Assembly: GCA_964187785.1 (NCBI GenBank)
Contig: OZ076421.1
Location: forward strand, 54,002,001-54,066,000
Source of the DNA: Amphiscolops sp. MND2022
Taxonomy: Eukaryota
Length of the DNA stretch: 64,000 bases
Direction of reading: 5' to 3'
This document shows, one piece after another, positions 229-29,664 of the stretch. Below the pieces are notes generated by a model. That model did not search any database. It worked only from the letters and a program-made list of their open reading frames with translations, and was not told the origin of the DNA. The position numbers were made by a program, and so were the translations under genes. Position 1 is the stretch's first letter. Each line of letters starts with the position of its first letter.

Positions 229-936
229 TCAGCGACGGGTGACCTCGAGGAGCTCTTTCTCGGCCCCGACAAAATTAGTTCCATTGTCGGACCATATTAC
301 ATTGGGCATTCCTCGCCGAGCTATAAAGCGTTCAATTCCGGCAACGCCCGCACTGGTGTCCATAGAACTAACTTTTTCCAGGTGTATTGCTCGGGTGATG
401 AGACACGTAAACAGGAACACCCATCTTTTCTCCGAGCTGCGCCGAGTAGAAACAAAGAAAGGGCCAAAGTAATCCACCCCGCAGTTACTGAAGGGTGGCT
501 CCAGATAACCTAGCCTCTCTTTCGGTAAGTCTGCCATCATGGGGTTTACGATTACGGTGTCACGTTTTCGACAAGGAATGAATTGGTAGCGGATGGTTCG
601 GAGGATGGAGCGGATCTTCAGAATGATGTACTTAGGGCCCACTTGGGCTCTTACGTAGTCAAAGCCCAGGTGATGGTACATTTGATGTAGATGTTTCAGC
701 ATTAACTTGACGAAATGATGTTTGCCATGAAGTATTACGGGGTGTTTGGTGTCGTGTCTAACGTCTGAAAGACGCCGCAGTCGGCTCTGTGAGCGTAACA
801 AATTATCAGGCCCAACGAAAGGGGAATATGATAGGAGACGGAGTTTGCCGGACTTTTGTTTTTTGGCGGCAAGAAGATCGTTAGAAAAAGACTCTACTTG
901 CGACAAGTAAAGTAGTTTCGTTTCGGCATTCTCCAA
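229..936 (-). pseudogene. BEL/Pao integrase (zinc-binding HHCC plus catalytic core) fragment
   Basis: HQMYHHLG...CRKR zinc region, VDYFGPF, HLEKVSSMDT, WSDNGTNFVG. The frame is broken at both ends. Confidence 0.9.
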
Positions 937-1055
937 CTCGCTCGGGTCCTCAATTTTGCCATTAATGGTACGAAAATGGCGGTAACGAGACGAAAGCTTA
1001 AAAAGGTAAGCGACAATTCGGATTAGCTTGCGATAAGAACTATAGTTACTCCAAA

Positions 1056-1922
1056 CTATGACGGGGAGTTAGGCGGCGACGCTGCTGCCAGCGAGTTGGA
1101 CTGTAATTTGTCAGTTGCACACGTTTCCGTTGGTTTAATAGTGTAAATGGCAGATGGTTCCGGTTCAAATCGCCAGTCGGATGTTCTGAGGAAATTAGGC
1201 CCTTTCGCCCAACAACAACTTGGAAGATCTGCTGCAGCGAGTCCGCGCGTTCCAGCATCTGCAGGGTTTTTAGCAGTAGGAACGTGAAACCATTGGTCAA
1301 TTGTTGTGGTTTCTAGAATTTCCGCTAAGCGGTTCGCAACAAAAACAGGCTGTTTATCTGCCGAAGCAAGCCATTGAAGAATTGTGCTGCTATCAGTCCA
1401 CATGAAAGTCTGGGGCACATCAAAAGTTAATGCACCGAGGATTTTCTGACGTAAGTGTGCAGCGATAAGCGCAGCTTGCAACTCGAGTTTAGGAATTGTT
1501 ATTGGTTTCATAGGCGCAACACGTGCTTTTCCTACTACGCATGACAAATGCGCAATATTTGAACCTTGACACTTAGCTCGAAGGAAGCCTACAGCGCAGA
1601 ATATGTCCTTGGAGCAGTCACCGAACATATGCAGCTCAATTTCTTCGACTGGGCTAGAGAAATATGGGCGAGGGATTGTCAAGTCTTGAAGCAACGGTAG
1701 TCCGGAACACCAATCATCAAATCGGCGAGAGAGGTCTTCGGGCAGTGGATTGTCCCACTGTTGCCCTTTGAGTTTCCAAATATCTTTCAAGAGCACGCGA
1801 GCAACAACGGTAAAGGGTGCGACAATTCCCAGCGGATCGAAAACGGCAGAGACCGTGCTCAACACAATGCGTTGTGTGTTGGGTCGATTTTCCTTCAACT
1901 TAACGCGCCGGCTCACATTCAA
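1056..1922 (-). pseudogene. BEL/Pao RT connection plus RNase H fragment
   Basis: TQRIVLSTVSAVFDPLG, ELHMFGDCS, KARVAP, TIPKLELQAA, WTDSST, NPADAGTRG. Confidence 0.9.
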
Positions 1923-2047
1923 AGTGTCAGCTTTGTGATCCCTTTTGAGACCTAAAAAGCGACGTGATCGTTGGGTGTTGGACTATTTCTTTAACGTGTG
2001 GGACAGGAACGGGCGGTTCAAGTGTTTCAGATAAATCGTTTACGTTA

Positions 2048-2913
2048 CTAATGAACTTTGTTAACTTGAAGAACCCCTAGTTTGAGCATTTCAATCAGCT
2101 CTTGACTCAGTTTCAAAGCAGTTTCAGGACACTCAACAGAGTCGAGGTAGTCGTCCATATAGAACTTCTGTTCGACGGCTTTTGCGGCAAGATGATAGGA
2201 GGCTTCATTGTCTCTAGCTGTTTGTTGAAGCGCAACGTTAGCGCACGTCGGCGAGTCTCTCGCTTCAAAAATGTGTCTCGTGTACTGGAGTGTCTCCACA
2301 TTCTGGGTGGGGTCCTCTCGCCACAAAAATTGCAATGCAAGCATGTTTGATCTGGAGGAGGCCCACCGACCTGAAGGAACATTCCTTCAATATCTGCTGA
2401 AACTGCATACTGATACTGTCGGAAGCGAAGGAGGACGTTTAACAGGTCTTGCAAGAGATCAGGGCCTGTTAACAGGCAAGTATTCAGCGACTTGCCATGA
2501 AACTTTGACGCCCCGTTTAGTACCCCCGGCTTGTTCGGGTTTACCACGGGGTGATGTGGCAAATACCAATCTCGTGAGGAACGGCATTCGGGGTTGAACT
2601 CACCAACGGGGATCACATAACCCATTTGAAGATCATCGTGGACAGTTTTGATATAATTTGATTTGAGTTCTGGGTCCTTTTCCAGTCTCCTTTCAAGTGA
2701 TTTCAGCTGGACCAGTGAAGCGTAGTAACTGCTAGGCAGTGTTACGTTGTCTGTCGCCCACAGCATGCCGACTGAGTACCGCTCTCCATCGTGCACGGTG
2801 GTTGTCTCGAGGATTTTGTTGGCACGCTTGTCCGCAGCAGAGCAGCAAGGATAGGCTTGAACGCAGGAACCATAAGATTCCAGGTCATACCACGCTTTTA
2901 CCTGTTCCGCCAA
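2048..2913 (-). pseudogene. BEL/Pao reverse transcriptase, frameshifted
   Basis: WYLPHHPVVNPNKPG, GPDLLQDL, ADIEGMFLQV in one frame; LQFLWR...HIFEARDSP...FYMDDYLDS in a second frame. Confidence 0.9.
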
Positions 2914-3301
2914 TGAGAGGTCTTCTACAGTAGCCTTAAAACACGTGGAGACAAACGAAGCGGACGTTCGCTCAGGTGTTGCACCACATAGAGCCCACCC
3001 TTACGGCAGCTGAACAACCCACGGGTCATTCATGGGGTCACCCTTGAAGGAATTAATTGGGTGAATAGCATACTACGCGTCTTCACCAATATTGAGCTGA
3101 ATATCGGAGTAATTATAAACGATGGGAGTGATGGGAACGATATGCGGATGTTGCTTTTGTAGTTCGTTCCGGTATGTCAATGAGCTCATTTCCGAGTGTC
3201 AATGATTTCGTGAATGGTTTAAGGTCAAATGAAAAGGGAGGATCGGCATACAGGGACGAAACCACAACTTCAACACGTTCGGTTACGACTTCTTGATTGG
3301 A

Positions 3302-5878
3302 TTAAATGCCACTCAGGGCAACCTTCGAGGGAGAGCCGGTGAGAGACAATGATTTGGCTAGCCTCTCAGATATCCAAGAGTGAACGCTCCCAGTATCACA
3401 CAAAGCTAAGACTTCCGCAGATCCACAACGACTGGAGACGTTCACCAAAACGACAGGTATAAGACCCCTTGTGTCGATATCCGTTGCGGCATAACTACAG
3501 GTAGACTTACTACCGCTCCAGACAGTAGCGCTAGCTGTTTTATTCGACTTCGGTGAAGAAGACTTTTTCTGACGCAATGGAAAGATGCGACTTGCGCCGT
3601 GCAACAAAGTATTATGCTGCCGTGGATTTTGACAGTCTGGAGATGTACATTGTATGTCCTTGTCGCATTCACTGGCTCTATGTACACCATTCACGCATCG
3701 AAAGCAGAAATTGTTATCAGCGGCAAGTTTCGCGCGCTGTGTAGGTGTTTTCGTTTTAAATTCATCACACTTCCACAATGGGTGCTTGCTTTTGCAACAC
3801 TGGCAGGGCAAAAATTTACTTTCCGGGTTGGTCCGTCGCACATGCCTGGGAGTAGTGGACAAAGTGGACCCGGTAGCTGCTGCTGTGGCGGAAAAAGACT
3901 TACTGTTACTTTTGACTTTGCTTTCTTCGGCTTTTGGCTTGCTTGTTCCTGAGACGTCCATTCGCTCATGGGCTTCTGCTTTTCGTTTGAGCCAATCGTT
4001 AAAGTCGATAAGCGTAGGTCGCAGCATGTCTTTTACTGCAGTGTGCATGGACCATTGCTCGCAAAGATTCGGTGGTAGTTTGTAAACAGCTTGGTTCAAC
4101 ATAGCAGCAGCTCTCAAGTCATTTTCGTAGTTCAGTGAACGGAAAACACCTATAATACTTGCAATGAAATTCGCGAAATCAATTATTTGTTCGGAACTAT
4201 GTATTCTGACAGGGGTGTAACTAGCTAACTCATCAAAATAGGCACCCACGACTACTTGTGGCTGGCCAAATTTGCGTTCTAACGTTTTCAGACTATCTCT
4301 ATAGAACCGTCCAGAGTACGCAACGTCAGCGATGGCTAATTTGGCTTTACCAGTCACAGGAGTTTTCAGATAGGTGATTTTCTCGTCGTCCGTCAAGTTA
4401 GCTGAGTCGATCGCACTCTTGAATTGACCCGACCACTCATGCCATGACAACGGGTCTCCGTCATACTTGGAAAGTGTCCACTCCGGGAGGGGGCCCTGGC
4501 GGTTCGATTTCAAGGCTTCGACTAAGTTTTGCATTGTGACTCCGGGCTGAGCGACGTTAATTGTTGAGGCAGCAAAAGGAGTAAGGTGACCTGTTGGCGC
4601 GGATATTGGCCCAGTATGCAGTAAGACGAGCGTTTGTGTGGGAAAGGGCGAGCTCCCATAATGAACAGAACCATGTGCACCCGGCGGAATTACTGCAGTT
4701 GTTGACAAGACGTTCGTGTTTGTACAAGCAGTAAAGATCGGAGCAGGCCGCGTAGTTGTAAGAGACGATGACGTCGTAGCGGCTGCATGGTTATTCACCC
4801 AAAGAGACAGTTTCGGAACGTACGAATTAGTCAGAAGCGAAGACTGTGCATTAAAAATAGGACGTTGTTGCGAATGCGAAGTGGAGATGACAGTCGAAAC
4901 AAAGACGTTGGGTCGCAGTTCTGCCACGGCTTCGGAGTTAAAGTTCAAGTGTTGCTGAAGTGACGGCACAATGGTGTTGTCGATAACATTGGATTGGTCG
5001 GTCGCCGCGTTGTCTGCAGACTCATTCAGGTTATCTTCAATGTGAGTAGTGGATTTCACATTGTCGAGGATAGAGCTGGTAGCCTGGTCCCGGCTCGCTG
5101 GGGAAAAGACATCAGTTGGGAGAGGAACGCCCATCTCCCGTTCGGTCTGATTCACGATCGAGTGCACCCAATCCGCAGTTAGATTACCAGTGCCACCATC
5201 CTCATCGTTGACACCCAAAGGCGCCAAATTTACATTCTTTCCAACACTTGAATCATCTGCTAACTCCATTTCGTCCATTTTTAGCTCATTCAATTTGCGG
5301 CGTTTTTCTTCAGAAATTTCTTTTAGTCTTAGGTCGAAGCGGTCCTTTTCAAGTTGCATTGCAGCTGCAGTTTGACGTTCGGCTTCTTGAGCTCGTAACT
5401 TAGTAGCCTCTAGGGCGCGTCGCCGTTGGCTAAAAGTCATGGAAGCAGCACGTGAAAAAGGTTGTGAACTTTTATGCGAGCGTGAGCCAATGCTTTTATG
5501 GGATGGAACAGATTCCGCATCTTCTGTGGCCTTATCGCTAGTGCCGTCCAATTAATCCCTAGCCATTGTCGTGGTTTTGTCGTGACAAGCCATTGCATTT
5601 TGGAGCCATTGGTCTAGGTCTTCGATAGTTTTCTGAGGATCATTAGTGTTTGGGGCAAGGTCTCTCAGTTGGTTGTTAGTAGCAATAGCTTTTTGCAACT
5701 TCTCTTCGGCGCGTCCTAAAAGGCTTTCGACCTTCGTTTTTTGTTTGGTATCAGAGGTGAGCACAGATTCGAGGTCTTCATATGTATTTCTGAGCTCATT
5801 CTCAAATCTATTACGGGATTTGGACAGCCTGGAAGCTGTTTCAAGCAATGGTTCCGGTTTAGAACCACACGCTTACAT
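3302..5878 (-). pseudogene. BEL/Pao gag-protease part of a single polyprotein ORF with in-frame nonsense codons
   Basis: ATG at 5876-5878 is followed directly by TAA (5873-5875); further in-frame TAA at 5552-5554 and 3302-3304. Contains a DUF1759-like core (YDGDPLSWHEWSGQFKSAID), Cys/His knuckles (CQCCKSKHPLWKC; CFRCVNGVHRASEC) and the protease DTGS motif. Confidence 0.88.
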
Positions 5879-7646: not shown

Positions 7647-9087
7647 TCAATGAAAATCCTGTTCTCCTTCCGAGGATGGATCTTCATCGTTGTCTTGTGT
7701 GTCCATTCGGTTCATGGGACGCTGTTTTTGTTTTGGTTCGCTTCGTCGTTCTTTGTTCTCTTGGTCATCTGTTCGTTTGTATGGCAGTTGTCCGTATGGG
7801 GTGCTAGTTTGTTTGGGAATTCGTTTTCGGCAATCTCTAGCTGAATGTCCAGTGTATCCGCAAATCTGACAAACGAGTTTTGGATTGTTTTTGGGTTTGT
7901 CGTCTTCCTGTCGTTTGGCTGGTTGTGTGGCGTCTGGCTTGGTTATGCCATTAGCCTCATCTCGTTGTCGTCCTCGGCATTCTTGTTTTCGATGTCCTTG
8001 TTTGCCGCAGTAGAAACATTTGCCCTCGAATCGTTTAGTCTCGGTTTTGGGTTGGGCTTGGTCAGATCGCGTGAATTCCATCTTTGTGGTGTTATCGGAC
8101 ATCTGGTTGAAGGGTTGGTAGGTGGATGTGGTTTGTTGAAGTACGTTCTGGTACTGGTATTTTCGGAGCAGGTATGTTTTGATTTCTTCGGGGCTACTGT
8201 CTTCCTTGTTCGCCATTGTCAGCTCTTGTTGGATTTCGACGGGTAATTTCCCGAAGAGAAACATCTTTATGCATTTGTCGGCTTCGTCCCTGTAGGCTTG
8301 CTTGGCGATTTTCTTGAGATCTTTCAGGAAATGTCCGAATGTCTGAGTGATCGGGTCGTATTTGGCCTCGTTCCATTTGTAGCGTGCGACTTCTCGCATG
8401 TCTTCCTTTGCGAACTCTTTTCTGAATAATTGGATGACATCTTGCAGTGTGGTGGTGGAGCTAATTGTGATTGTTTGCCAAAAGTCGATGGCTTCGTCAC
8501 GGAGTAGGCTTTGGAAGAAGTGGATTTTATCTTCTTCTGTAATTTTGTTGGCGATTGGTCGGATGTGGTTAAGTAACAGATGTTCAAATTTATTGTACTT
8601 ATCTTTAGTTCCGCAGAATATTGGTACATGTGTTTCGTAATTTCGTGTTTGTTTTCTGTAATTTTCTGGGCAGATCTTGAATGGCGTTGAGTAATGCGGT
8701 TTCCTTTGAACTGCCAGGTGTATGTTCATAGTCGTCTTCGTCTTCTTCATCATGGAAGTGGTTGCGTTGGTTTCTATGAAGTCCTGTTGACTCCTGTCAC
8801 CATGTTGGACGACCGTACTGGGTACGAAGATGTCGTGGCAGCAGCGTCCGTTTGTCTAGTTCTTTCGTCATTTTGTTCTGATAATTCCTCCATCATAGCT
8901 TTTAGAACTGAGAGGCTAGTTCGTTAATTGGAGAATCCTGTCCTGACTGGACTTGTTCGTCTGGATTTTCACTGTTGTTTTCCATTATGCTAACCTTTTC
9001 ACTATCGCTGAATCCATTTGAATTATCTGAAGGAGGTGGAATTAGTGATTTTCCGTTTCTAAGTATTATAGGAGAACTAGAACTCAT
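7647..9087 (-). pseudogene. Ty3/Gypsy-type gag, frameshifted; pol not seen
   Basis: Capsid-like region (FEHLLLNHI...KIHFFQSLLRDEAIDFW) and two CCHC knuckles (CFYCGKQGHRKQEC; CQICGYTGHSARDC). The 5' part (MSSSSPIILRNGK, 9087) lies in a shifted frame. Confidence 0.85.
8790..8802 (-). promoter_or_regulatory. Primer-binding site (tRNA-Leu-like) within the gag reading frame
   Basis: - strand ...CCAACA|TGGTGACAGGAGT: a CA LTR end followed by TGG. Same TGGTGACAGGA motif as at 19952 and 23356. Resembles the tRNA-Leu(CAG) 3' complement TGGTGTCAGGAGT. Confidence 0.7.
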
Positions 9088-14354: not shown

Positions 14355-14886
14355 TTTTCAGTAGAAAATGAGCCCGACTATTACAGTGAGTAGTTTTTTA
14401 AGACGCATAAGGTCCACTTTTTGTTCATTTGTTCAACAACGTCAACTTGAACTACGGACGTGCAAAACATACTCGAAATGCCAGAACCTCGTCCAAAACA
14501 GAACCATTGACGTCCAGAACCTCGAAAATATTCTAAAGATCCCCCTTTGGTGTTTTTTCACTCGGATTTTTTTCGCACTATGCGACTTTTTTGAAATTTT
14601 TTGGATTGCACCAAAGGGCCTCCTCTTCGTTTGTTTCCATGTTTTGCAAGACAATGGATGTCAAAAAGTCCCAAAGGGACCCCCCTTTTACATTTTTCGG
14701 CACTGTGACACTGTTCACAAACTCATTTTAAAATTTTTCCCGGAATTTTTTAAAATCTCCCAAGGGTCCCCCTTCAATTTTTTTTATATTTTGCAACGAA
14801 CTGGAGTTTCACAAAGCCCAAAGTGTACCCCTTTTACATTTTTGAGCCTCAGATATAGCGCCGACTTTAATCGTTCTCGGCTTGTT
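14355..14886. mobile_element. Non-autonomous Helentron/DINE-1-like (HINE) element, copy A
   Basis: Diverged reverse complement of 19252-19782. Has the GCGCCGACT subterminal motif, internal AAGGG-N-CCCCCTTT-like repeats, and ends ...CGTTCTCGGCTTGTT. Confidence 0.6.
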
Positions 14887-17794
14887 ATAATTGAATTGGG
14901 CAGCTGGATAAGCGTCATGTCACTTTTCAGGAAGGCCACAAAAAAGTGAAAATATCTTTGAGTGCTTGGAAATTTCATTGAGTACTGATATTGTTTCACT
15001 TGTCTTTTATTCAGTTGTTGAAAAGTTTTCCCTTTAGCCTCCACCTGACCATCTAAGTTCTCAAGGTCACATTTTTAGATGCCTTCAAAACACAATGGGA
15101 TTATTGAGGAGAAGATCTCCCAAGATTCCTATTTCAGCAGAATTACGACTGTCAGATATTTTTAAGATCTTCCATTCAACAGACGTTGCTACTATGCCGT
15201 TGTTCACGTTTTTTGCCCACCAATAACCTACTGGAGAGAAAGTGATTAGATGAAGCTTTTTACGCTGCTATGGCCGATATCTCAACATTTGGCAAGCCGT
15301 TGTTCTGTTGTTTTTTAATCTACAGGGATATTTTTTTTGGCTGCGATGGTTCAGACAGCAATATCTTGTCAGATCTAGAGATTTGTTTTCGATGTTCGAC
15401 CGCATAAACTAGAACAATTGAAGAATAAGAGTCCGTGTAAGTTTGTTGATTCTATGTAACGACAAGCGCTAGCGCTTAACCGAGACTTAGAAGTGGAGGA
15501 ACTAGAACGATGAATATGATCCGGGACCTAGATCTCCACAGCCCTTGCTCATTTTGCCTCCAAGGGAGCCAGTCCCAAGGTGGGGGAAACGTCTTATGAG
15601 ATACTCTCTGGCCTGGTCCCCGTTTTTAACTGCTAAGAATAACAGGCATCTTCCTTGGGCTAAAGAACACTGCTTAATTAGCCTTTGAAAAGGGGGGCGA
15701 AAGACTGAATTGAATTTGAACCATATATCTGGGAAATCTGATGAATCGTCAATAATGAAATAGCACAGATGTTATTCAGACAGCTCTCGAGCATATCAAT
15801 CTAAACTACGATAACGTACAATAAATACAACAGTTTGAGTCCGTTTCGTCCATGGGTAAGACCGAAAGGAGGTCGAGCTGGTAACACCACAGAACACCAC
15901 AGGGATCTTTAGGCAGACATCCGGATTCACAGGTTTCAGCTCCAAAAGTAGTGAAATCTTGTCTGAAATTGCCCAATTCCGTGAACAATATGTACGAATA
16001 GCTGCTCTTGCTGCTGGTCTTGCTTTTTTCGTTCTCGCGGGCAGCGTTCTGTGTCTTTTGAGGCTGTTTCTGGGAAAGCAAGGTACTTTGCTTCAAACAT
16101 GCTCAGGCTTCCACGTCAGATTTGAACGAAATTTTGGTAAACTTGTTGGAATATGTTGGTATCGGCAGTTACCGTTACACCAGTTTACCGACGTTCGGGT
16201 CATTGGGTTCCTGTAGTTCATACTGTAGGAAGGGTTACAGATCTTTAAGTCGCTAACGGACCGCTGTAGTTGCTTTTTCAGGTCGTTTTTTGTACAGTAG
16301 AAAAGGCTTACGTTCGAAGGGGTTATATTCAAAATTTTTATTTCTTGACTCAAAATATCAATGTTTCCTGCTTTTGTGTACGGGAATCTCAGATTGAGCC
16401 TCAAATACTAGCGTTATGAGAAATCAAAATAAATTACCAAAATCACTTGTGTTGTGTACATTCAAAGCCGAGTGAAGTCTTGATTTTCATAGAATTTGTT
16501 CCAGATTTGGCATTTCAAATTTGTACTATTGAAGGTTTTCAAGACAAAATTTTGTTTTATTTCTTATTAAAATTGACTTCATTAAAGTTTAACGGCGACG
16601 TAAGGTATAATTAGACAAGAACTGTTATTTAATAAATCAACTCGCAATGAGAGCTAGGTTTGAAATAGACGTGCGTGAATTAATCTGAAAACTAAGTTGT
16701 TGAGGGTAAAGAAAATTTCAGAAACTTTAAGGGGTCCCACAGTGCCGAAAGATCGTATGTTCGTTTTATGTTCATCTGATTTGCACCACACATGAAATGT
16801 CTTCTTTATAAAGACTATCACAGACCATCCAACAAACCTAAGCTCTTTTGACGTTGTAACAACCCTTAGAGTGTTGTTAAAACTACTAATGCTTTCATTT
16901 GGCTTCAGCAAATACTGGTACAAAGTCGAATAAATTGTCTCAGCTGTATTGAAATGCGAATATGAAAACACACAGCGTTGTAAATTTAGAGAAAAAAATC
17001 CGGCATTCCAAAAACTATTGGATTTAGTGTTTCGTGCACACCATACTATGACCATTGCCCGGGAAACGCGATATTCATACTATGATCCTCTTATGGAACG
17101 CATACTTTTCATACACGGCATTTTAGGGATAAATAAAAAGGACAACATTTAACGTTGCTGTTGATGATTTTACTGTCTATTTCTCAACCAACCAACCAAT
17201 GTCTTTCAGAACCGTGGCAAGTGCTGGCATGGTATGATTTTTTACTTTTATTACTTAAATATTCACTATTAATTTCCAAGAAAGTACAAATCTCCTCAGA
17301 AAGTGGGAATAGCTGTAGCAAAAGAGCACAAGAGTTCAGGTGCAATTATTCGACCGCTTTTTAAACATCGATGGCTTTTAAGTGAGCGGATTCGCATTTG
17401 ATAACGGAACTTCAATGCCAAAAGCATGAACGAAATCGTGACAACAGTTGAACAAACGAAACATGTGAAAACTTTCCTTTCAATCACGGATTAAGGTTAC
17501 TGCGTGCATCAATGAAATTAGGAAAACAAAAAGTTCAGAAAAGATTCGAATCAGCTACCCTGGAATGATCTTGAATTGACATTGCTGAAATGTGGAAACG
17601 TTGAAACAACGAAAGTGGTAACGCTGTGGAAAGGAGTTCACGCTGACTGAATCAGATCTTTAATGAGTTTTTCAAGCCCTCGTGAAATATGTGTAAAAAT
17701 AATCCACCCTGAAATAATTCACTCGTGCTTCAAAGTCTCATTCAAGAACTACTACCTCGTCTCAACCTGGGAATGAATGTTGAAGGAACCTAGC

Positions 17795-19951
17795 TGTCGC
17801 AGGGCTATCCGTGCGAGATGTCCGGAGTGCAACGTAATTGAAGCAGTCAACGACAGCATCTTGATGAATTTACACGTAATTGTGCTTGTAATTTATACTG
17901 CATAATGCGGTTTGTATAAAACAGCATATGCGGTATTATTGACAAAACAGCATAATGATTTCAAGCCTACTTCTGCTTATGCTTTATGCTGCATTATTAG
18001 GTTTTCATAGAACAGCTTATGCGGTATTTCAATCAAAACAGAATAAAGATTAGTCACTCTGGTGCTCACACATATTATGATGTACTATACAGTTTATGCA
18101 GTAATTTCACAAAAACAGCATGATGTTTTTATTCAAAAACAGCATACTGAACACCAGCAGGACAGTGCTAGCGAAATACACTGCATTATGCGGTTTGCAC
18201 AAAACAGCATATGCAGTTTCATTAGAAAAATAGCATAACATCTACACGTGTGTTCATACATACACTTCACGCCACAGTATGCGGAAATTATATAAAAACA
18301 GCATTATGATCTTAATCAAAAACAGCATGATGATCTTATCAGTAGCAGCTTAATGATCATTCACACTGGCGCTCACATATTATGATGTATCATATGGCTT
18401 ATGCGGAATTTTCAAAAAAAACAGCATGATGATTAAAAGTGAAAACAGCATAATGAATATATGTGCGGCGGCGCTAGTAATTTATAATGCAACATGCGGT
18501 TTTCATAAGACAGTATATGCGGAATTATGACAACAGTCAGCATAATCTGCATAAAAATCCGCGTTAATCCGCCGCTACTACAGTGCTATATTTAAACTTT
18601 CTAGGAACATGATGTAACTTCTGACCCTAGAAACATGACGTTATGATGATTTGCATAAAACTGACGGTCATGCTACTACTAATACCACCCAATGGAATGA
18701 TTTGAAGAGAGACCCTTAAAAAATCAATTCAGAACCATCCTTCAACAAAAATCTCACATACAGCGCAGTCAATCACTTTCACGAACGACCCACAATCCCC
18801 AAACTCTGCAGTTTGCTTTCTCTGTAAAGATAACTTCTACAGTCTCATTTCACCTGAGTATCTTTGTAATTCAAAGATTTTTGCACTCAAGACTGTTTTC
18901 AACATGGGAAATAGAAAGAAGAGACGTACAAGGAAAACAGAGTCCCAGTCTCCAGAGAAAGATGAGATTACTTCAAAAACAAGTCTTTCACAAGAACCCT
19001 CACAATTCAGCAATGAAATAGAAGTAATTTCACAAAGACTAACAGAACAAAACAATACTAAGATGACACAGATTGAAGAAGAACTAAACAACAAATTTGA
19101 AGAGATACTTAAAAAAATCAGAACAAACAGAAATTCCACCATAACAACTTATGAAGAGGATGCTGAGAGTAGTCAAACCGGTCCTTCTAACTCGACAAAT
19201 AAAAGTCTCTGGAACACACACGCAGCAAATACAACAATAGATGAATACAAAACAAGCCGAGAACGGCCAAAGTCGGCGCTATATCTAAGGCTCAAAATTG
19301 TAAAAGGGGGACTCGTTGGGTTTTGTGAAACTCCAGCTGGTGGCAAAATCTTAAAAAAATTGAAGGGGGGACCCTTTAAGGACTTAGAAAAATTGCCCAA
19401 AAAAATTTAAAATGTGAATTTTGAACAGTGTCACAGTGCCAAAAAATGTAAAAAAAGGGACCCTTTGGAATTTTCTGACATCCATTGTGTTTTAAAATAT
19501 CGAAACAAATAAAGGGGGGACCCTTTGGTGCAATCCAAAAAGTTTCAAAAAAGTCGCATAGTGAGGGGGGGGGAGGCTTAGGGGAGATCCTTAGTGTGTT
19601 GTCGAGGTTCTGTTTGTTTTGTTTTGTTTTCGTTTTGGACGCGCTTCTTAGGTTCGCCAAGTTGTTGAAGAAATGATCTGAACGAAAAGAAAAGAAACAG
19701 AAAAAAAGTGGACCTTTCGTGTCTAAAAAAAACTACCCACTGTAAGAGTCGGGCACATTTTCTACTAAAATGCGCCGACTAAAAACAGGATGGTTGGTTC
19801 TATCCATTAGAAGTGAGCGAACTAGGTCAACCGTATAGTCCCCTAGGAGTTGTGAACGAAAGGCTAGATGAAACCATTATAATAAACGAAAACAGACAGA
19901 AAGCCGATTATCACATGATGTCAGGGGGAGTGGGATTAGCCGATTATCACA
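17795..19951 (+). repeat. LTR1 (5' LTR, interrupted by a HINE insertion)
   Basis: TGTCGCAGGG...GATTATCACA, followed by the PBS at 19952. Diverged homolog of LTR2 and LTR3. Confidence 0.85.
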
Positions 19952-20200
19952 TGGTGACAGGACCTGCCAAATTATCCTGAGACAAAGTTCTAACAAAACA
20001 AATATCACAAATACATTTGGACGAAACGCAGAACATCTTTTCCTCGAGCATCCCGAACCGCCAGACCCCGTCAATCAGATTCCCAAGCAATTGGGACGCT
20101 TGCAAGGAAAAATCAAAAACCTTCCACATCGAAGGATCTAAACTAACAACGATATGCCTTCACATCAATTTACCAAAGAAAAATAAAACTCAGCAGTGAA
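18904..20200 (+). pseudogene. gag N-terminus starting inside LTR1, split by the HINE and truncated
   Basis: MGNRKKRRTRK...coiled-coil region...DYHMMSGGVGLADYHMVTG reading across the LTR end and PBS, then a frameshifted DPVNQI-containing continuation. Confidence 0.6.
19252..19782. mobile_element. Non-autonomous Helentron/DINE-1-like (HINE) element, copy B, inserted in LTR1
   Basis: Absent from the empty sites at ~23187 and ~26591. Asymmetric subterminal inverted repeats AGTCGGCGC/GCGCCGACT, a terminal hairpin, insertion into an A/T run, and no clear TSD. Confidence 0.7.
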
Positions 20201-21186
20201 ATTGTAGCAACCGCTGACTCCAAGACCCATAAAAATTACACTAATTAAAAACGACTCAACGACTACTACACCTGACACTTATTCGGAGGACCGGTATGAA
20301 TTATACAAGCACACCCCAGATATCTACATACTGCGAGAATTATTTGAACCCAAAATTGAACAAGAAACACAAAAGAATTCACATCAATTCAAAACCTCAC
20401 TTTTCATGTCATGGTAGGAAATGACCAATTTGAACGCCCTTTTGATACAACCCTCCTCGAATTCCAGGTAGCTGATTTTCAATTCCAACAAAACTTCATC
20501 GTGATGTTCAAAAAGGTGACACACTTCTTTCTCAAGATGACTTGTGTACCCACAATAGGGACACTAACTTTGGATCTATGTCATATGCTTCTGAGCCGGA
20601 AAAAACTGACCAACCAGAGGACAAAGTTGAAAATGAATCGATTTGTCAACCCGAAATATAACACCCACCCACCCGCGTCACTTCAATCAAAAAACAGGGG
20701 AACCTCGGCAGAACAGCCTGCCGTGAATAACAATGAACTACAAAAGGTTGAAAAAACTACAGAAATCAAAAATCATGAGCCCTGATTTTTTCAAGAAATT
20801 CAGAAAATTCCCAATTTAACCCTACCCAAGGTGCTATCAAATCTCCCGAAAACAACCAAGAAACTGAAACACAAGGAAAGAAGAAATTGTTATTACATGA
20901 GAAGATGCCAGCGAGTCGGAGATGGGAGAAGACACGGGACCATTTCTTGTACAGTTAGTCAAGCGTTATGACAGACCCTTCATGGCTGTATTCGGAGCTG
21001 GGGAGGGCCTAAAACAAACAGGGAGATTGAGCCTGGATGAAAACGTGAAGATCGAGAGGAGCTAGAACACAAACAAAATTCCAAATACAAGAAGCTGAAA
21101 CCAATCAGAAACAAAAGTTGTCTGATCAAAATTGTGAGAACCTGATCAATTCTCACATTGAATTCTGGAGTCGACTCAAAAAAAAT

Positions 21187-21381
21187 TGTTCATCACCTGG
21201 AACAAGGAACCCGAAAACGGATCGGTGAAGAGCTGATGAAAAAACGGAATGTGTTCATCACTTTGGACAGGAAACCCGAAAACGTGCCTGTTGAATGCTG
21301 ACGAAAATACAAAACTTGTTCATCACTTTGTATAGAAAACCCGGAAAGAAACCTGTTATAAAGCTGATGTGAAATTAAATA
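21187..21381. repeat. 3 x 65-bp imperfect tandem repeat (duplicated at 24591-24785)
   Basis: TGTTCATCAC...ACCCG anchor at 21187, 21252 and 21317. Confidence 0.75.
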
Positions 21382-21715
21382 CGATTGTTTTCTTCTATTA
21401 GGAAATAGGCAAAAATGTTTGAAAATACTGACGTTCTGTTGGCGACTCGATTTCTTCATCATATCCAGATATTTTCTCCCCTTTCGAAGTATTGATTTGG
21501 CAGTTCAAAAAGTTATAACGGGTTGTTCGAATTGCGAACTCTAAGAACTAAGTGAACTACACGAGGAACAATCACAAAGGTCAGAAGGTAGAACTGTTGA
21601 CACTGAGGTTTCAAAGCAGATGACGACAAAGAGACTATACGAGATCGACACGTACAATCGAGGGCATTCATCGATGGACTTGGAGCGGCGTAGATCTGCT
21701 TCAAACAAGCTGGAC

Positions 21716-23355
21716 TGTCGCAGGGCTATTCGTGCGAGATGTCCGGAGTGCAACATAATTGAAGCATTCAACGACCGCATCATGATGACTTTACACGTAA
21801 TTGTGCTTGTAATTTATACTGCATTATGCGGTTTGTATAAAACAGCATATGCGGTGTTTTTGACAAAACAGCATAATGATTTCAAACGTAATTCTGATTA
21901 TGCTTTATGCTGCCTTATGAGGTTTTCATAGAACAGCTTATGCGGTATTTCAATCAAAACAGCATAACAGTTAGTCACTCTGGTGCTCACACATATTCTG
22001 ATGTATTATACAGTTTATGCAGTAATTTCACAAAAACAGCATGTTATTTATATTCAGAAACAGCATATTGAACACCAGCAGGACAGTGCTAGCAATTTAC
22101 ACTGCATTATGCGGTTTGCACAAAACAGCATATGCAGTTTCATTAGAAAAATAGCATAACATCTACACGTGTGTTCATACATACACTTCATGTCACAGTA
22201 TGCGAAAATTCTATAAAAACAGCATGATGACCTTAATCAAAAACAGCATGATGATTTTAATCAGTAACAGCGTAATGATCATTCACACTGGCGCTCACGT
22301 ATTATGATGTATCATATGGCTTATGCGGAAATTTCAGAAAAACAGCATGATGAATAAAAGTGAAAACAGCATTATGAAAATATGTGCGGCGGCGCTAGTA
22401 CATTATACTGCAATATGCGGTTTTCATAAGACAGTATATGCGGAATTCTGACAACAATCAGCATCATCTGAATAAAATTCCGCGTTAATCCACCGCTACT
22501 ACAGGGCTATATTTAAACTTTCTAGGGACATGATGTAACGATTTATTTTTAACTTCTGACCCTAGAAACATGACGTTATGATGATTTGCATAAAACTGAC
22601 GGTCATGCTACTACAAATACCAACTAATGGAGTGATTTGAAAAGAGACCCTTAAAAAATCATTTCATAATCATCATCCAACAAAAATCTCACATACAGCG
22701 CAGTCACTCAATTTCACGAACGACCCACAATCCCCAAACTCTGCAGTTTGCTTTTTCTGTAAAGATAACTTCTACAGTCTCATTTGACCTAAGTTTCTTT
22801 GTAATTCAATGATTACTGCACTCAAGACTGTTTCCAACATGGGAAATAGAAAGAATAAACGTTCAAGGAGAACAGAGTACCAGTCTCCAGAGAGAGATGA
22901 GGTTACTTCAGAAACAAGTCTTTTACAAGAACCTTCACAAATCAGCAATGAAATAGAAGTAATTTCACAAACACTAACAGAACAAAACAATACTAAGATG
23001 ACACAGATTGAAGAAGAACTAAATAACAAATTTGAAATGATACTTGAAGAAATCAGAACAAACAGAAATTTCACCATAACAACTGATGAAGAGGATGCTG
23101 AGAGTTGTCAACCCGGTCGTTCTAACTCGAAAAATAGGAGTCTCTGAAACACACACGCAACAAATACAACAATAGATGAATACAAAATTCAGGATGATTG
23201 GTTCTAGCCATCAGAAATGAGCGAACTAAGACAACCTTATACTTCCCTAGGAGTTGTGAACCAAACGCTAGATGAAACCATTATAATAAACGAAAACAGA
23301 CAGAAAGCCGATTATCACATGATGTCAGGGGGAGTGGGATTAGCCGATTATCACA
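21716..23355 (+). repeat. LTR2 (recombinant middle LTR, 1640 bp)
   Basis: Matches LTR3 up to 23266 and LTR1 from 23303 onward; followed by the PBS at 23356. Confidence 0.88.
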
Positions 23356-25119
23356 TGGTGACAGGACCTGCCAAATTATCCTGAGACAAAGTTCTAACAA
23401 AACAAATATCACAAATACATTTGGACGAAACGCAGAACATCTTTTCCTCGAGCATCCCGAACCGCCAGACCCCGTCAATCAGATTCCCAAGCAATTGGGA
23501 CGCTTGCAAGGAAAAATCAAAAACCTTCCACATCGAAGGATCTAAACTAACAACGATATGCCTTCACATCAATTTACCAAAGAAAAATAAAACTCAGCAG
23601 TGAAATTGTAGCAACCGCTGACTCCAAGACCCATAAAAATTACACTAATTAAAAACGACTCAACGACTACTACACCTGACACTTATTCGGAGGACCGGTA
23701 TGAATTATACAAGCACACCCCAGATATCTACATACTGCGAGAATTATTTGAACCCAAAATTGAACAAGAAACACAAAAGAATTTACATCAATTCAAAACC
23801 TCACTTTTCATGTCATGGTAGGAAATGACCAATTTGAACGCCCTTTTGATACAACCCTCCTCGAATTCCAGGTAGCTGATTTTCAATTCCAATAAAACTT
23901 CATCGTGATGTTCAAAAAGGTGACACACTTCTTTCTCAAGATGACTTGTGTACCCACAATAGGGACACTAACTTTGGATCTATGTCATATGCTTCTGAGC
24001 CGGAAAAAACTGACCAACCAGAGGACAAAGTTGAAAATGAATCGATTTGTCAACCCGAAATATAACACCCACCCACCCGCGTCACTTCAATCAAAAAACA
24101 GGGGAACCTCGGCAGAACAGCCTGCCGTGAATAACAATGAACTACAAAAGGTTGAAAAAACTACAGAAATCAAAAATCATGAGCCCTGATTTTTTCAAGA
24201 AATTCAGAAAATTCCCAATTTAACCCTACCCAAGGTGCTATCAAATCTCCCGAAAACAACCAAGAAACTGAAACACAAGGAAAGAAGAAATTGTTATTAC
24301 ATGAGAAGATGCCAGCGAGTCGGAGATGGGAGAAGACACGGGACCATTTCTTGTACAGTTAGTCAAGCGTTATGACAGACCCTTCATGGCTGTATTCGGA
24401 GCTGGGGAGGGCCTAAAACAAACAGGGAGATTGAGCCTGGATGAAAACGTGAAGATCGAGAGGAGCTAGAACACAAACAAAATTCCAAATACAAGAAGCT
24501 GAAACCAATCAGAAACAAAAGTTGTCTGATCAAAATTGTGAGAACCTGATCAATTCTCACATTGAATTCTGGAGTCGACTCAAAAAAAATTGTTCATCAC
24601 CTGGAACAAGGAACCCGAAAACGGATCGGTGAAGAGCTGATGAAAAAACGGAATGTGTTCATCACTTTGGACAGGAAACCCGAAAACGTGCCTGTTGAAT
24701 GCTGACGAAAATACAAAACTTGTTCATCACTTTGTATAGAAAACCCGGAAAGAAACCTGTTATAAAGCTGATGTGAAATTAAATACGATTGTTTTCTTCT
24801 ATTAGGAAATAGGCAAAAATGTTTGAAAATACTGACGTTCTGTTGGCGACTCGATTTCTTCATCATATCCAGATATTTTCTCCCCTTTCGAAGTATTGAT
24901 TTGGCAGTTCAAAAAGTTATAACGGGTTGTTCGAATTGCGAACTCTAAGAACTAAGTGAACTACACGAGGAACAATCACAAAGGTCAGAAGGTAGAACTG
25001 TTGACACTGAGGTTTCAAAGCAGATGACGACAAAGAGACTATACGAGATCGACACGTACAATCGAGGGCATTCATCGATGGACTTGGAGCGGCGTAGATC
25101 TGCTTCAAACAAGCTGGAC

Positions 25120-26759
25120 TGTCGCAGGGCTATTCGTGCGAGATGTCCGGAGTGCAACATAATTGAAGCATTCAACGACCGCATCATGATGACTTTACAC
25201 GTAATTGTGCTTGTAATTTATACTGCATTATGCGGTTTGTATAAAACAGCATATGCGGTGTTTTTGACAAAACAGCATAATGATTTCAAACGTAATTCTG
25301 ATTATGCTTTATGCTGCCTTATGAGGTTTTCATAGAACAGCTTATGCGGTATTTCAATCAAAACAGCATAACAGTTAGTCACTCTGGTGCTCACACATAT
25401 TCTGATGTATTATACAGTTTATGCAGTAATTTCACAAAAACAGCATGTTATTTATATTCAGAAACAGCATATTGAACACCAGCAGGACAGTGCTAGCAAT
25501 TTACACTGCATTATGCGGTTTGCACAAAACAGCATATGCAGTTTCATTAGAAAAATAGCATAACATCTACACGTGTGTTCATACATACACTTCATGTCAC
25601 AGTATGCGAAAATTCTATAAAAACAGCATGATGACCTTAATCAAAAACAGCATGATGATTTTAATCAGTAACAGCGTAATGATCATTCACACTGGCGCTC
25701 ACGTATTATGATGTATCATATGGCTTATGCGGAAATTTCAGAAAAACAGCATGATGAATAAAAGTGAAAACAGCATTATGAAAATATGTGCGGCGGCGCT
25801 AGTACATTATACTGCAATATGCGGTTTTCATAAGACAGTATATGCGGAATTCTGACAACAATCAGCATCATCTGAATAAAATTCCGCGTTAATCCACCGC
25901 TACTACAGGGCTATATTTAAACTTTCTAGGGACATGATGTAACGATTTATTTTTAACTTCTGACCCTAGAAACATGACGTTATGATGATTTGCATAAAAC
26001 TGACGGTCATGCTACTACAAATACCAACTAATGGAATGATTTGAAAAGAGACCCTTAAAAAATCATTTCATAACCATCATCCAACAAAAATCTCACATAC
26101 AGCGCAGTCACTCAATTTCACGAACGACCCACAATCCCCAAACTCTGCAGTTTGCTTTTTCTGTAAAGATAACTTCTACAGTCTCATTTGACCTAAGTTT
26201 CTTTGTAATTCAATGATTACTGCACTCAAGACTGTTTCCAACATGGGAAATAGAAAGAATAAACGTTCAAGGAGAACAGAGTACCAGTCTCCAGAGAGAG
26301 ATGAGGTTACTTCAGAAACAAGTCTTTTACAAGAACCTTCACAAATCAGCAATGAAATAGAAGTAATTTCACAAACACTAACAGAACAAAACAATACTAA
26401 GATGACACAGATTGAAGAAGAACTAAATAACAAATTTGAAATGATACTTGAAGAAATCAGAACAAACAGAAATTTCACCATAACAACTGATGAAGAGGAT
26501 GCTGAGAGTTGTCAACCCGGTCGTTCTAACTCGAAAAATAGGAGTCTCTGAAACACACACGCAACAAATACAACAATAGATGAATACAAAATTCAGGATG
26601 ATTGGTTCTAGCCATCAGAAATGAGCGAACTAAGACAACCTTATACTTCCCTAGGAGTTGTGAACCAAACGCTAGATGAAACCATTATAATAAACGAAAA
26701 CAGACAAGAAGCCGGTTGTCACATGTTGACAGGGGGAGTGGGATTAGCCGATTATCACA
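25120..26759 (+). repeat. LTR3 (3' LTR, 1640 bp)
   Basis: TGTCGCAGGG...GATTATCACA followed by the TSD CTAGC and unrelated flanking DNA. Confidence 0.88.
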
Positions 26760-29664
26760 CTAGCGAAATCTGGTTTCCCCAAAAAATAAGAAGTGGGCCT
26801 CGAAATTCGAAGTTTCTGCATCTTTCATTGACACACACGAAGTAACTTGTTTGTTGCATTTGACTTTAACAAAAGAAACGATTTGGCTTGTACAGTGAAA
26901 GTTGGCAGCCACAAAAAGCAAATCTGTAGAACTTTTTTAAAGGGAGATTTTGTTGTGATTACAACATTAGGCCTGTGCAGATTCGAGTATCTCAGCTATC
27001 TATGGATGAACCTTGAGCAATTCGTTCATCACCCGTTTGTCCGAGTAGGTGTTTCATGACAAAATGAACTCAATTGAAACAAGCAAAATTTGAAGTGCAA
27101 CAGTGAGCAGTCAGAACTTTGCGACCGGAGACAATTCACCTTGAAATCACAGCTTCAAGGAGCACATTGCTTGGCAATTTGACTGCAACTATGATACTCT
27201 GACTTGCCATTGGTAGAAAATTTTTGAAAAACCTCCTAAAATGCTTCTTCGGCGTCTAGCCTTTCGCTGCACTTAATTCCCCAGAAATGATGGTAAACGT
27301 TTGCTTTAAACTACAACTGAGCAATTGCATATAAAAACTTTTCGGGCAGCATTTTTTTGAGCATTTGTTTTGAACTACAATAACCCCCATACCTTGTGCC
27401 GATTCAATACGTCTAAGCTCCTCTTTCTGTCTGCTCGGAGCTATCGTATTGTTTATTGAAGAATGTTTTTCGATTTTAATTTTGTACGTTTTTTCGTACG
27501 AGAAGAATCGACTATAGCAGTAGCTTTTTTAGGACCACCGAACTAACAGATTTCTACGAGTTTTTCTATCTGCTTATATTACTCTATGTAATTGTATTTA
27601 CTACTCTGTATTGTAATATTACTCTATTCTTAATTTTTAACTGTCCTATGCCCTAGAGGTTAACCCAGACTTTGTTATTTTCAGCCCAATGTGACTTTTA
27701 TCAGCACAGGAAATCAATTTCCTGATTATTAAGGGTGGCATCTTTCTTTTGTGTCCTAAGAAACTGATAAGAGTTTTCTCAATATTTTTCGAAAAGACCT
27801 GCGATTTTTCGTCACTGTCTGACCTTTTTTGAGAAAGATTTTTTTGGTCAAAGGGTTTTCATAAATGTTTCCGACTTGAAAAAAAAATCATTTTGCAAGC
27901 TTAATGTTCGTTTTTCGCCACTGAAATTCTTCATGAATTGTTTTGTGATATTTCCAATTGGCGAAAACTGGTCTACGAATCTTTTGGATATCATTTAGGC
28001 TGTTTTTTGGCACTGTAAATTGACAAACAGTTCATAAATGTGTCGCGTTGCATATTTAATGAACTTCGTTTTTCAAACCTTGAGCGCGGCGCAGACTTGG
28101 ACCGCTCCCGGTTAGTTTTTTATTACTTTCATCAATTCTGAAGCGGCAGTTCAGTAAATTCACTCTTTGATCGGGAAAAAAGTTGGTGCAAGCTCAGACA
28201 AACGACAAGAAAGCAGCTAAAAAATCTAAAATCAAAACATACGACTGCAAGACAATTGATTTTTTTGGAAAATCACGCCTATATACATACACTAAGCATT
28301 TGTTGAAAAAAAATGGAAAAAAATCCGATGGTTGTTTTCTTCTTGATGTAGTTTTTCAAACGCCTTATCGGCTGCAAAGAATTTCGATTCGTTTTTTCGG
28401 GAGAATTCTCAGAATAGATTTTCCCTGCAAAAAAACAGTGGATAAAGCTAATATTTTTCAAATTTGACGGTTTTTGAAATCTTTAGTGTTGTTTAGTGTT
28501 GTTTCAACAGTAAAAACAGTTTAAATCAATTTTAATAATTCTTGGTGCAGCTTGTTGGTGGAATTGTTGGTCGAAGTCGAAGCAATGATTAAAAATTCTT
28601 TCATTTTCTTGCACAAAATTCTATAAAATAGTGTGAGCTTCTTTCTATTTGACACTTTGAGGTACTTAAGTCAACTGAGTTACCCTTTTGACAATTTTTT
28701 TTCTTTCATGAATTTATTTGATGAAAAGCGTTCCTCATGTCTTCTTTTCGAAAAAAAGTGTGAAAAAAATCTCTTGATAACAGTAAACAAGGTTGATCAT
28801 GCAAAGTTTCGAAGAAACATTCTTTGAGACTCAATACCTTGAAAAAGGCTTCTCTTTGAGGGAAAACTAAAACATGGAGTTATTGAAACGAAAAATATTC
28901 CGTCGTTAAGTTTTTACTATTCGTCAAAACACTGTTTTATGCTATCACTACAGTGTTCCAAGAAAATTGAGGTTTTAGATGAAAATGTTTGAATCATAAC
29001 AAATTCGCCTCTTTTGTCATTTCAAATCTGCATTTATAGAGACAAATAGCCAATCGCGAATCATGAAGCTGCCTCAGCTATCTGCAATGATGCTCTTCCT
29101 ATTCGGAGGGATTTTCATTCAACCCTCCAAGGCAACATACGGTTAGAATAACTTCCATTCTTTTCGACTGAATTTAGCATGTTCCTGAGCGGTTTGACCA
29201 GACTTTTTTACATTCGTTTGCGACTTTTTTGTAAAAGTTTGAAACCTTTTTTGTAAAACAAATCTTGCGTGTTTACACTAAGCAGCGTTTAACATTACGA
29301 CAAAGATCGAACTTTTTTCAAAAATTAGAAAATCAAAAATGGTTTACCTAACACAGATGATTCCCCATGCTGTCAACCTTGAATACTATGGTATCAACTG
29401 TAGCTAATAAAACAGAAATAGGACATTTCACTGACGGAACATTTAAATAACGTTTTCAAGTATTTTCGAAATATTTTCAGAACAATAGTGTTATGTACAC
29501 CGGTTATTGGTATTAAATTACGTGCATAACTAATTGAGTGAAACTATATTTCAATTTTTTTAAAATTTCCCATTTGAAAAAATAGTTTTTAACGTTTTTG
29601 ACATTATACTAACTCACGACTACATTAACATAATTTCTCAGTATGAAGTACATTGAATTCAAGA

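Follow-up and report, generated by a model that had tools for sequence, protein, structure and literature searches.

The plus-strand strong-stop DNA made in vitro by HIV-1 and MLV reverse transcriptase (RT) on an 18-nt primer binding site (PBS) stops one nucleotide before m1A58 of the tRNA primer, with 18 nt copied (PMC8599865). In HIV-1, a set of 44 proviruses attributed to delayed second-strand transfer carry tRNA(Lys3) inserts of 7-54 nt, five with a base change at position 58, and all 44 are classed there as defective (PMC12657518). In the yeast elements Ty1 and Ty3 strong-stop DNA that copies the tRNA is considered to be a dead end, so that primer sequence is not inherited (PMC5371799 section 2.2; PMC7472051 section 4.3). 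The Drosophila element Gypsy has two sites for tRNA-Lys2, the second lying at the far 3′ end (PMC1635307). Human tRNA-Leu gives a mutation signature at m1A58 and a stop signature at m1G37 in tRNA sequencing (PMC5066629). No heritable capture of primer sequence by an LTR retrotransposon was found in the literature searched, most older and subscription papers lying outside its scope. Nothing relevant came from PMC7197481 or PMC8775094. Older virology work on HIV-1 strand-transfer errors and PBS-adjacent insertions may include closer cases.

The window (i.e. the whole 64,000-nt stretch of Amphiscolops sp. DNA that was analysed) lies on C13 of the 1.07 Gb host genome assembly G000. It contains at 17795-26759 a decayed, non-autonomous Ty3/gypsy LTR retrotransposon, organised as LTR-internal-LTR-internal-LTR with a period of 3404 and flanked by the target-site duplication (TSD) CTAGC (17790-17794 on the left and 26760-26764 on the right, both plus strand, as are the element's own parts given below). 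The 5-bp TSD is exact in six of seven relatives checked, with one mismatch in the seventh. The LTR termini are TG...CA (TGTCGC...TATCACA). LTR1 (17795-19951) contains the 5′ part of gag, and is interrupted by a MITE-like insertion of about 530 bp with approximate edges at 19256 and 19786. The MITE-like copy resembles 14356-14886 in inverted orientation, and MITE-like pieces are found also in five of 35 unrelated loci compared by BLAST. Internal region 1 (19952-21715) comprises decayed remnants with no long ORF, its gag being devoid of capsid and knuckle, and internal region 2 (23356-25119) has just two differences from it. With an internal region of 1.76 kb that contains stops and frameshifts, and no long pol ORF, this copy is not autonomous.

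The remaining LTRs are LTR2 (21716-23355, with the gag ATG at 22839) and LTR3, the 3′ LTR (25120-26759). LTR1 and LTR3 are 92.6% identical when the insertion in LTR1 is set aside. LTR2 is of the LTR3 type up to about 23266 and of the LTR1 type from 23303 onwards, which makes it the recombinant product of an unequal crossover and leaves two independent LTRs. The preliminary description of this locus had placed the feature discussed below in three LTRs; it is indeed present in all three, but the mosaic nature of LTR2 rules out their being three independent witnesses.

Each LTR ends in a 36-nt unit, lying exactly where it had been reported (19916-19951, 23320-23355 and 26724-26759). The unit comprises 22 nt of tRNA-like sequence (19916-19937 in LTR1), followed by the last 14 nt of the LTR again (19938-19951), restoring the ...TATCACA terminus. 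The first and second units are identical; the third has two differences within the unit and four just upstream. The PBS, TGGTGACAGGA, is located directly after the first two units (19952-19962 and 23356-23366) and provides 11 nt of complementarity to tRNA-Leu. The third unit is followed by the same CTAGC that precedes LTR1, and the second ...TATCACA is the integrated end of the element.

Compared with the complement of the host tRNA-Leu, the three units match at 17, 17 and 18 of 19 positions with three bases set aside. In the aged copy at 19916-19937 the TGG that would pair with CCA reads TGA. The match reaches 8 nt past the 11-nt genomic PBS, and these 8 nt (GTGGGATT), which could not have come from any local PBS, have a chance of occurrence of about 4e-5 when six offsets are allowed. 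The departure previously termed a 3-G expansion is really a 3-nt insertion plus a substitution, relatives reading GGAGGAG or GGAGGAC at this point. Position 15 of the unit is C in 38 and G in six of 47 units, and the G-type tail of the window may be ancestral, or may have been refreshed by a later tRNA copy. Neither ARAGORN nor Rfam gave matches within the window.

A pattern for the 3′ end of tRNA-Leu matched 767 places in the genome, from which 20 loci were fetched. ARAGORN found tRNA-Leu in four of these (three CAG and one AAG), and by inspection six more are intron-bearing tRNA-Leu genes of the CAA type. The remaining ten are truncated CCA-bearing copies adjoining LTR-like ends. The suggestion that a host tRNA has the required 3′ end is borne out, since the tRNA-Leu genes (CAG, AAG and intron-bearing CAA) end ...ATCCCACTCCTGTCA; the complement quoted at that time was of the vertebrate type (TGGTGTCAGG...) and was incorrect, the host having TGGTGACAGG... 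The complement of the mature tRNA-Leu is TGGTGACAGGAGTGGGAT, then T (opposite A58), then CGAACC. Intron-bearing genes of the tRNA-Leu(CAA) type form a large tandem array on G000:C8 from about 35.59 Mb, with a period of about 296 bp; most of the 767 pattern matches, of which 100 are listed, probably belong to it. Five tRNA-Leu genes at G000:C11:6.11-6.13 Mb (L290-L292) each have a genomic CCA directly after them.

Several other elements are present in the window. Another LTR element lies at 7647-8855 on the minus strand; its gag has a zinc knuckle, and its PBS, at 8802, provides 13 nt of complementarity to the same tRNA-Leu. A decayed BEL/Pao element (DUF1759, Peptidase_A17 and rve) lies at 229-5872 on the minus strand, and an integrase zinc-binding domain at 61890-62858, also on the minus strand, marks a further LTR element. 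Between about 32200 and 51000 some 18 units of about 1015 bp are arrayed in tandem; they are 88-100% alike in the core, and the array has no match in Rfam.

The open reading frame that crosses the LTR end encodes, from its homologues, the N-terminal part of a Gag of 552 aa that has a CCHC knuckle. In those homologues zf-CCHC scores above the cut-off, and the match to Ty3_capsid is weak and falls below it. A Pfam search with two unit-bearing ORFs found no domain; their identity as Gag comes from the longer homologues. The pol order in a full-length relative (L213) is PR-RT-RH-IN, and together with the CCHC Gag this places the family within Ty3/gypsy. The PBS of the window family lies inside gag, as does that of Ty1. 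Full-length members (L207-L212 and L085+L214) are 16-17 kb long, and just upstream of the 3′ LTR they have one more ORF, of 236-318 codons and in the sense orientation.

A census of the family was made using an exact pattern of PBS plus gag that is blind to the sequence upstream, giving 109 matches; 99 of the 100 that were listed were examined. The unit is absent from 83 of these junctions; 13 have a single unit and three have two. In each of the 16 long Gag homologues DYH/DHH-M(V/M)TG occurs just once, and the unit is absent. The unit is therefore a derived character. Thus comparison of LTR ends across the family, as proposed in the preliminary description, does reveal members that lack the 36 nt, and they are the majority.

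In a tree of the 175 nt 3′ of the PBS (102 rows) 25 of the 28 unit-bearing junctions fall in a single clade (SH-aLRT 99), together with 14 unit-less rows. That clade has lost both capsid and knuckle, and the other three junctions are found in capsid-bearing clades. The tree of the 380 nt 5′ of the LTR end contains 131 rows, one of which was re-anchored and two added by hand; the long-branch rows W_19915 (which includes the MITE), L118, L124 and L062 are unreliable in it. A single clade of unit-bearing LTRs was rejected, as the starred branches of this tree force at least ten label changes. The window LTR groups with unit-less, capsid-bearing lineages, whereas its internal region is of the deleted type. 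This mismatch and the label changes show that the unit has moved between LTR backgrounds. Neither flank tree makes the unit monophyletic, so that the case for a single origin depends on the TGA and the 3-nt insertion that the units share.

It had been proposed that the unit was kept in frame with gag. The register (DYH-MMSGGVGLA-DYH) is correct, but the frame in the window is open for only 49-56 codons before the PBS and nine after it. The gag of the window element is dead. In four young relatives a frame of 230-245 codons is open through one or two units. All units in the family of the window element are multiples of three in length (33, 36 and 39 nt), yet 25 of 28 lie in a capsid-less gag, so that the argument for selection acting to hold the gag frame would be a weak one.

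Most of the unit-bearing elements for which both ends were seen have the unit in both LTRs (the window element, L109, L112, L113, L114, L116 and L118). This is also true of the full-length L025, with L023 being partial. Nine elements are discordant between the 5′ junction and the 3′ LTR. In L068, L069, L070 and L124 the 5′ junction has two units and the 3′ LTR a single one; in L076, L084, L086 and L085/L214 the 5′ junction has one unit and the 3′ LTR lacks it. L071 has a unit in the 3′ LTR alone, having lost the one at its 5′ end.

Among these, L068, L069 and L070 each combine an aged unit in both LTRs with a further, perfect 19-nt tRNA copy that is confined to the 5′ junction. TSDs are present in all three, and their LTRs are 97.3, 99.9 and 99.9% identical respectively. 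The extra unit comprises 19 nt of tRNA and 14, 14 and 20 nt of LTR end, making 33, 33 and 39 nt. Where the new copy differs from the aged unit of the same element it always does so towards the tRNA. These comparisons indicate that the extra unit arose at or just after integration, and was not templated by the adjacent aged unit. The discovery of such fresh, perfect captures strengthens the original reading of the unit as a primer-derived copy. In the 380-nt tree the 5′-only unit copies group with their own unit-less 3′ LTR, with support of 99-100. The same architecture is found at the 5′ junction only in three other families, with units of 25 nt (L055/L077), 26 nt (L271/L308) and 54 nt (L031/L079); the LTRs of the last are 100% identical.

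Units are present in public protein sequences as well. Among the matches listed 136 proteins were examined (for one search 120 of 195), the unit being called by a loose pattern, and at least 24 carry it on this basis. One (P0025) ends in four stacked units. In P0035 a 33-nt unit stands alone at the 5′ junction, and in P0082 one stands alone at an LTR end. The two are on contigs of equal length and so are probably one element, which points to a second, independent fixation as judged from the proteins. Note that P0082 and P0025 carry MVTG units at LTR ends, and this weakens the idea that TGG must be lost before a unit can enter the LTR.

Primer copies were sought more widely using the exact 18-mer of the tRNA-Leu complement, which has 123 matches in the genome. 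Examination of 100 of these showed five tRNA genes, 38 sites following ends other than CA, and 57 following CA. Most of the 38 belong to multi-copy families with a genuine 18-nt PBS, for which the MITE is the only sequence shared with the window family (35 loci, BLAST). Amongst the 57 sites that abut CA, 40 stop at 18-19 nt (i.e. at A58) and 17 read on. Adding two non-CA cases gives 19 read-through copies, all of which have CCA. The architecture of the window unit is shared by six of the 95 sites that are not genes, three within its family and three in others. Other integrated outcomes include overwriting of the PBS region (L053), forward jumps (L057 and L322) and a fold-back (L268). In L268 (G000:C7:27524119-27524197) two LTR ends are linked head to head through inverted tRNA copies; the fold-back occurs at the variable arm, and both arms have the same change at nt 19. 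L080 (G000:C10:37121000-37130999) is a tandem array of sister-family LTRs with a very short internal region repeated several times, in which an 18-nt tRNA copy abuts the sequence just before the next LTR.

The read-through copies depart from the gene sequence at a particular place. Nucleotide 19 is A or G in nine of the 19, compared with 0-1 of 19 non-T at each of nt 20-25. A non-T at nt 19 is found at 12 places in the genome, comprising 11 truncated copies at LTR-like ends and one gene. A variant tRNA gene is thereby ruled out as the source of A, present in no gene; G is present in one. A copy of tRNA-Leu(CAA) of about 57 nt at an LTR end in L040 (G000:C7:20817649) is without the intron of the genes. 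The CCA, the miscopying at nt 19 and the loss of the intron together show that primer RNA was copied into the genome. The CCA would not have been sufficient proof of an RNA origin, because five of the 100 18-mer sites are tRNA genes with a genomic CCA.

Six of the 19 read-throughs (which include L031, L032, L041, L259, L268 and L274) end at nt 47, the base before G37. This peak, counted as five of 17, has p of about 2e-4 for the named position under a uniform null of 30 and about 5e-3 for any position, the peak having been noticed before G37 was named. Anticodon-loop cleavage may be an alternative to m1G37 as the cause of these ends, though L040 and L042 extend beyond this point. There is no excess of stops at U54 (22 nt), with one in 100 18-mer sites. 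If m1A58 and m1G37 are assumed for the host, it is likely that the longer primer copies record the modification sites of its tRNA-Leu.

We consider it very probable, from evidence that is all in the form of integrated DNA, that the unit is a piece of primer that was trapped by a backward jump of plus-strand strong-stop DNA and has since been inherited in U5. The PBS of the family pairs with just 11 nt of tRNA-Leu. By analogy with retroviral biochemistry, plus-strand synthesis should copy 18 nt of the primer and halt at A58, and the 18-19-nt stop profile of the genome fits such a halt. The 18-nt copy would then have a 7-nt tail that could not pair with the region of an 11-nt genomic PBS. Occasionally synthesis from this tail might resume some 14 nt upstream of the PBS, with the minus strand as template; the landing would involve microhomology of 0-6 nt, or be made end to end where a short remnant of U5 is left. 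The predicted product is LTR, tRNA copy, LTR end and PBS at the 5′ junction only, and products of this kind are present in young copies. At the landing site L068 has 6 nt of microhomology, L077 has 5 and L079 has 2-3. None is apparent for L308 or L070, which makes annealing and end-to-end jumping both candidate routes.

A later transcript primed at the downstream PBS would place the unit in both LTRs, which is the end state seen in the window element and its relatives. The unit has since aged (TGG becoming TGA, with addition of 3 nt), crossed LTR lineages, disappeared once from a 5′ junction, and in some elements acquired newer tRNA copies beside it. Most likely the unit is a by-product that is tolerated; it would persist because the 14 nt copied again give back the integrase end, and lengths of 33 or 36 nt maintain the gag register. 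The fresh captures and the derived state of the unit are in good agreement with the earlier proposal of an aberrant strand transfer that spread to both LTRs.

Two other sources for the tail should be considered. The unit contains a 23-nt direct repeat (the 14-nt LTR end plus the start of the PBS), as would result from a local DNA duplication of LTR end and PBS, with the tail being derived from an ancestral full-length PBS or chance filler. Such a duplication could likewise arise at a 5′ junction alone, and L308 of another family already has a genomic PBS of 17 out of 18 nt. However, there are nine places in the genome with ATCACA plus the 18-mer, and at none of them does a member of the family have an 18-nt PBS that leads into gag; all nine are second captures, overwrites or aberrant ends. 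Thus the genomic TGGTGACAGGAGTGGGATT PBS continuing into gag that might have explained the segment was not found in the family at these places. The 7-mer GTGGGAT, which also served as the probe for the second segment of a bipartite PBS, occurs once in three of four full-length elements, far off and without a flanking tRNA match. Chance filler has the probability of about 4e-5 given above. In L069 every difference between the new copy and the old unit beside it is in the direction of the tRNA. We therefore regard local duplication as largely refuted, and extremely improbable. It is also highly unlikely that the tail came from a template switch onto co-packaged RNA of another family with an 18-nt PBS. 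Potential donor families do exist, with constant downstream sequence and LTRs ending ...GTTAAAA and ...GTTAAAT, but they have no sequence in common with the window family besides the MITE (35 loci, BLAST). Two switches within 20 nt would be required, in several families, and in six duplication events no donor-family bases are seen after nt 18. Moreover, the read-through, miscoded and intron-less copies prove that primer is copied directly at LTR ends.

A different question is whether a unit with the same origin is kept by selection, as a tRNA-fragment decoy, an extra primer site or a landing pad. The computed pairing of the 3′ 18-mer of the tRNA with the aged unit is -20.7 to -23.2 kcal/mol, compared with -19.8 kcal/mol for the real PBS, and reaches -35.7 kcal/mol for fresh copies. 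Lengths that are multiples of three throughout the window family could be read in the same way, and in four elements with a 5′ unit the unit-less 3′ LTR is still the nearest relative, as expected for a landing pad. Against this, the CCA-pairing base has been altered in 46 of 47 old units, a unit is present at only 16 of 99 junctions with 25 of 28 in the capsid-less lineage, the gag frame of the window is broken, and L071 has dispensed with its 5′ unit. A length of 33 nt is what the geometry (19 + 14) gives, and the other families have units of 25, 26 and 54 nt. On balance selection for such a site seems unlikely.

Trapping of the primer by a backward jump resembles the HIV-1 case in that RT copies the primer tRNA past the PBS and then switches to the minus strand (PMC12657518). 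The tRNA sequence expected of an aberrant second-strand transfer extends 8 nt past the PBS in the window unit, and is matched at 19 of 19 positions in the fresh copies. The HIV-1 event is a forward jump that leads to deletion and a defective provirus, whereas here the jump is backward and duplicates the LTR end and PBS. Unlike the products described for those proviruses (PMC12657518), the unit here survives integration, enters both LTRs (including those of full-length L025), is inherited and recurs; HIV-like forward-jump products (L057 and L322) are also found in the host genome. The 18-19-nt class agrees with the m1A58 stop of HIV-1 and MLV RT (PMC8599865), but unlike an 18-nt PBS the 11-nt PBS would leave an unpaired tail on every plus-strand strong-stop. 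The m1A58/m1G37-type pattern is the same as that of human tRNA-Leu (PMC5066629), found here in germ-line DNA where it would have been written by the elements' own RT. As in Gypsy (PMC1635307) and the bipartite PBS of Ty3, the element RNA contains a second site complementary to the tRNA; in those elements it is genomic, at the far 3′ end or in U3, while here it is adjacent, tandem and primer-derived.

The short PBS is like that of Ty1 and Ty3, and the pol order is that of Ty3/gypsy. Unlike Ty1 and Ty3, primer copies have reached this genome many times and one became family sequence. As the yeast elements are described as not inheriting a tRNA copy, capture in the present family reflects either an error pathway or a different enzymology. 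In summary, what is known is the HIV-type error. What the literature searched does not contain is capture in a Ty3/gypsy LTR that is heritable and recurrent, and not a dead end.

The means by which elements with a PBS of 8-12 nt dispose of extra primer sequence has been worked out chiefly in yeast, where it is termed a dead end. In the genome analysed here dozens of integrated outcomes can be seen, among them backward and forward jumps, overwriting, fold-back and direct joining to unrelated DNA. As they come from several families, and both LTRs serve as internal clocks, the question of how the primer sequence is disposed of can be approached by counting. The tandem PBS-like sites will misguide annotation of LTR ends and PBS. 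More tentatively, and with the balance of probability against it, short-PBS Ty3/gypsy elements may operate a primer ratchet, in which the tail is repeatedly written into U5. Its copies, up to four in a stack, would be exchanged between lineages when strands are transferred and would serve as decoys for tRNA fragments or as landing pads, and the leak would leave a germ-line record of tRNA modifications. If this were true, the A58 stop and miscoding and the G37 stop would be readable from assemblies alone, in any species and for any primer tRNA. The DNA fossils suggest a way to map tRNA modification sites in organisms that lack tRNA sequencing. In this family a host tRNA sequence has been turned into heritable LTR and Gag-coding sequence.
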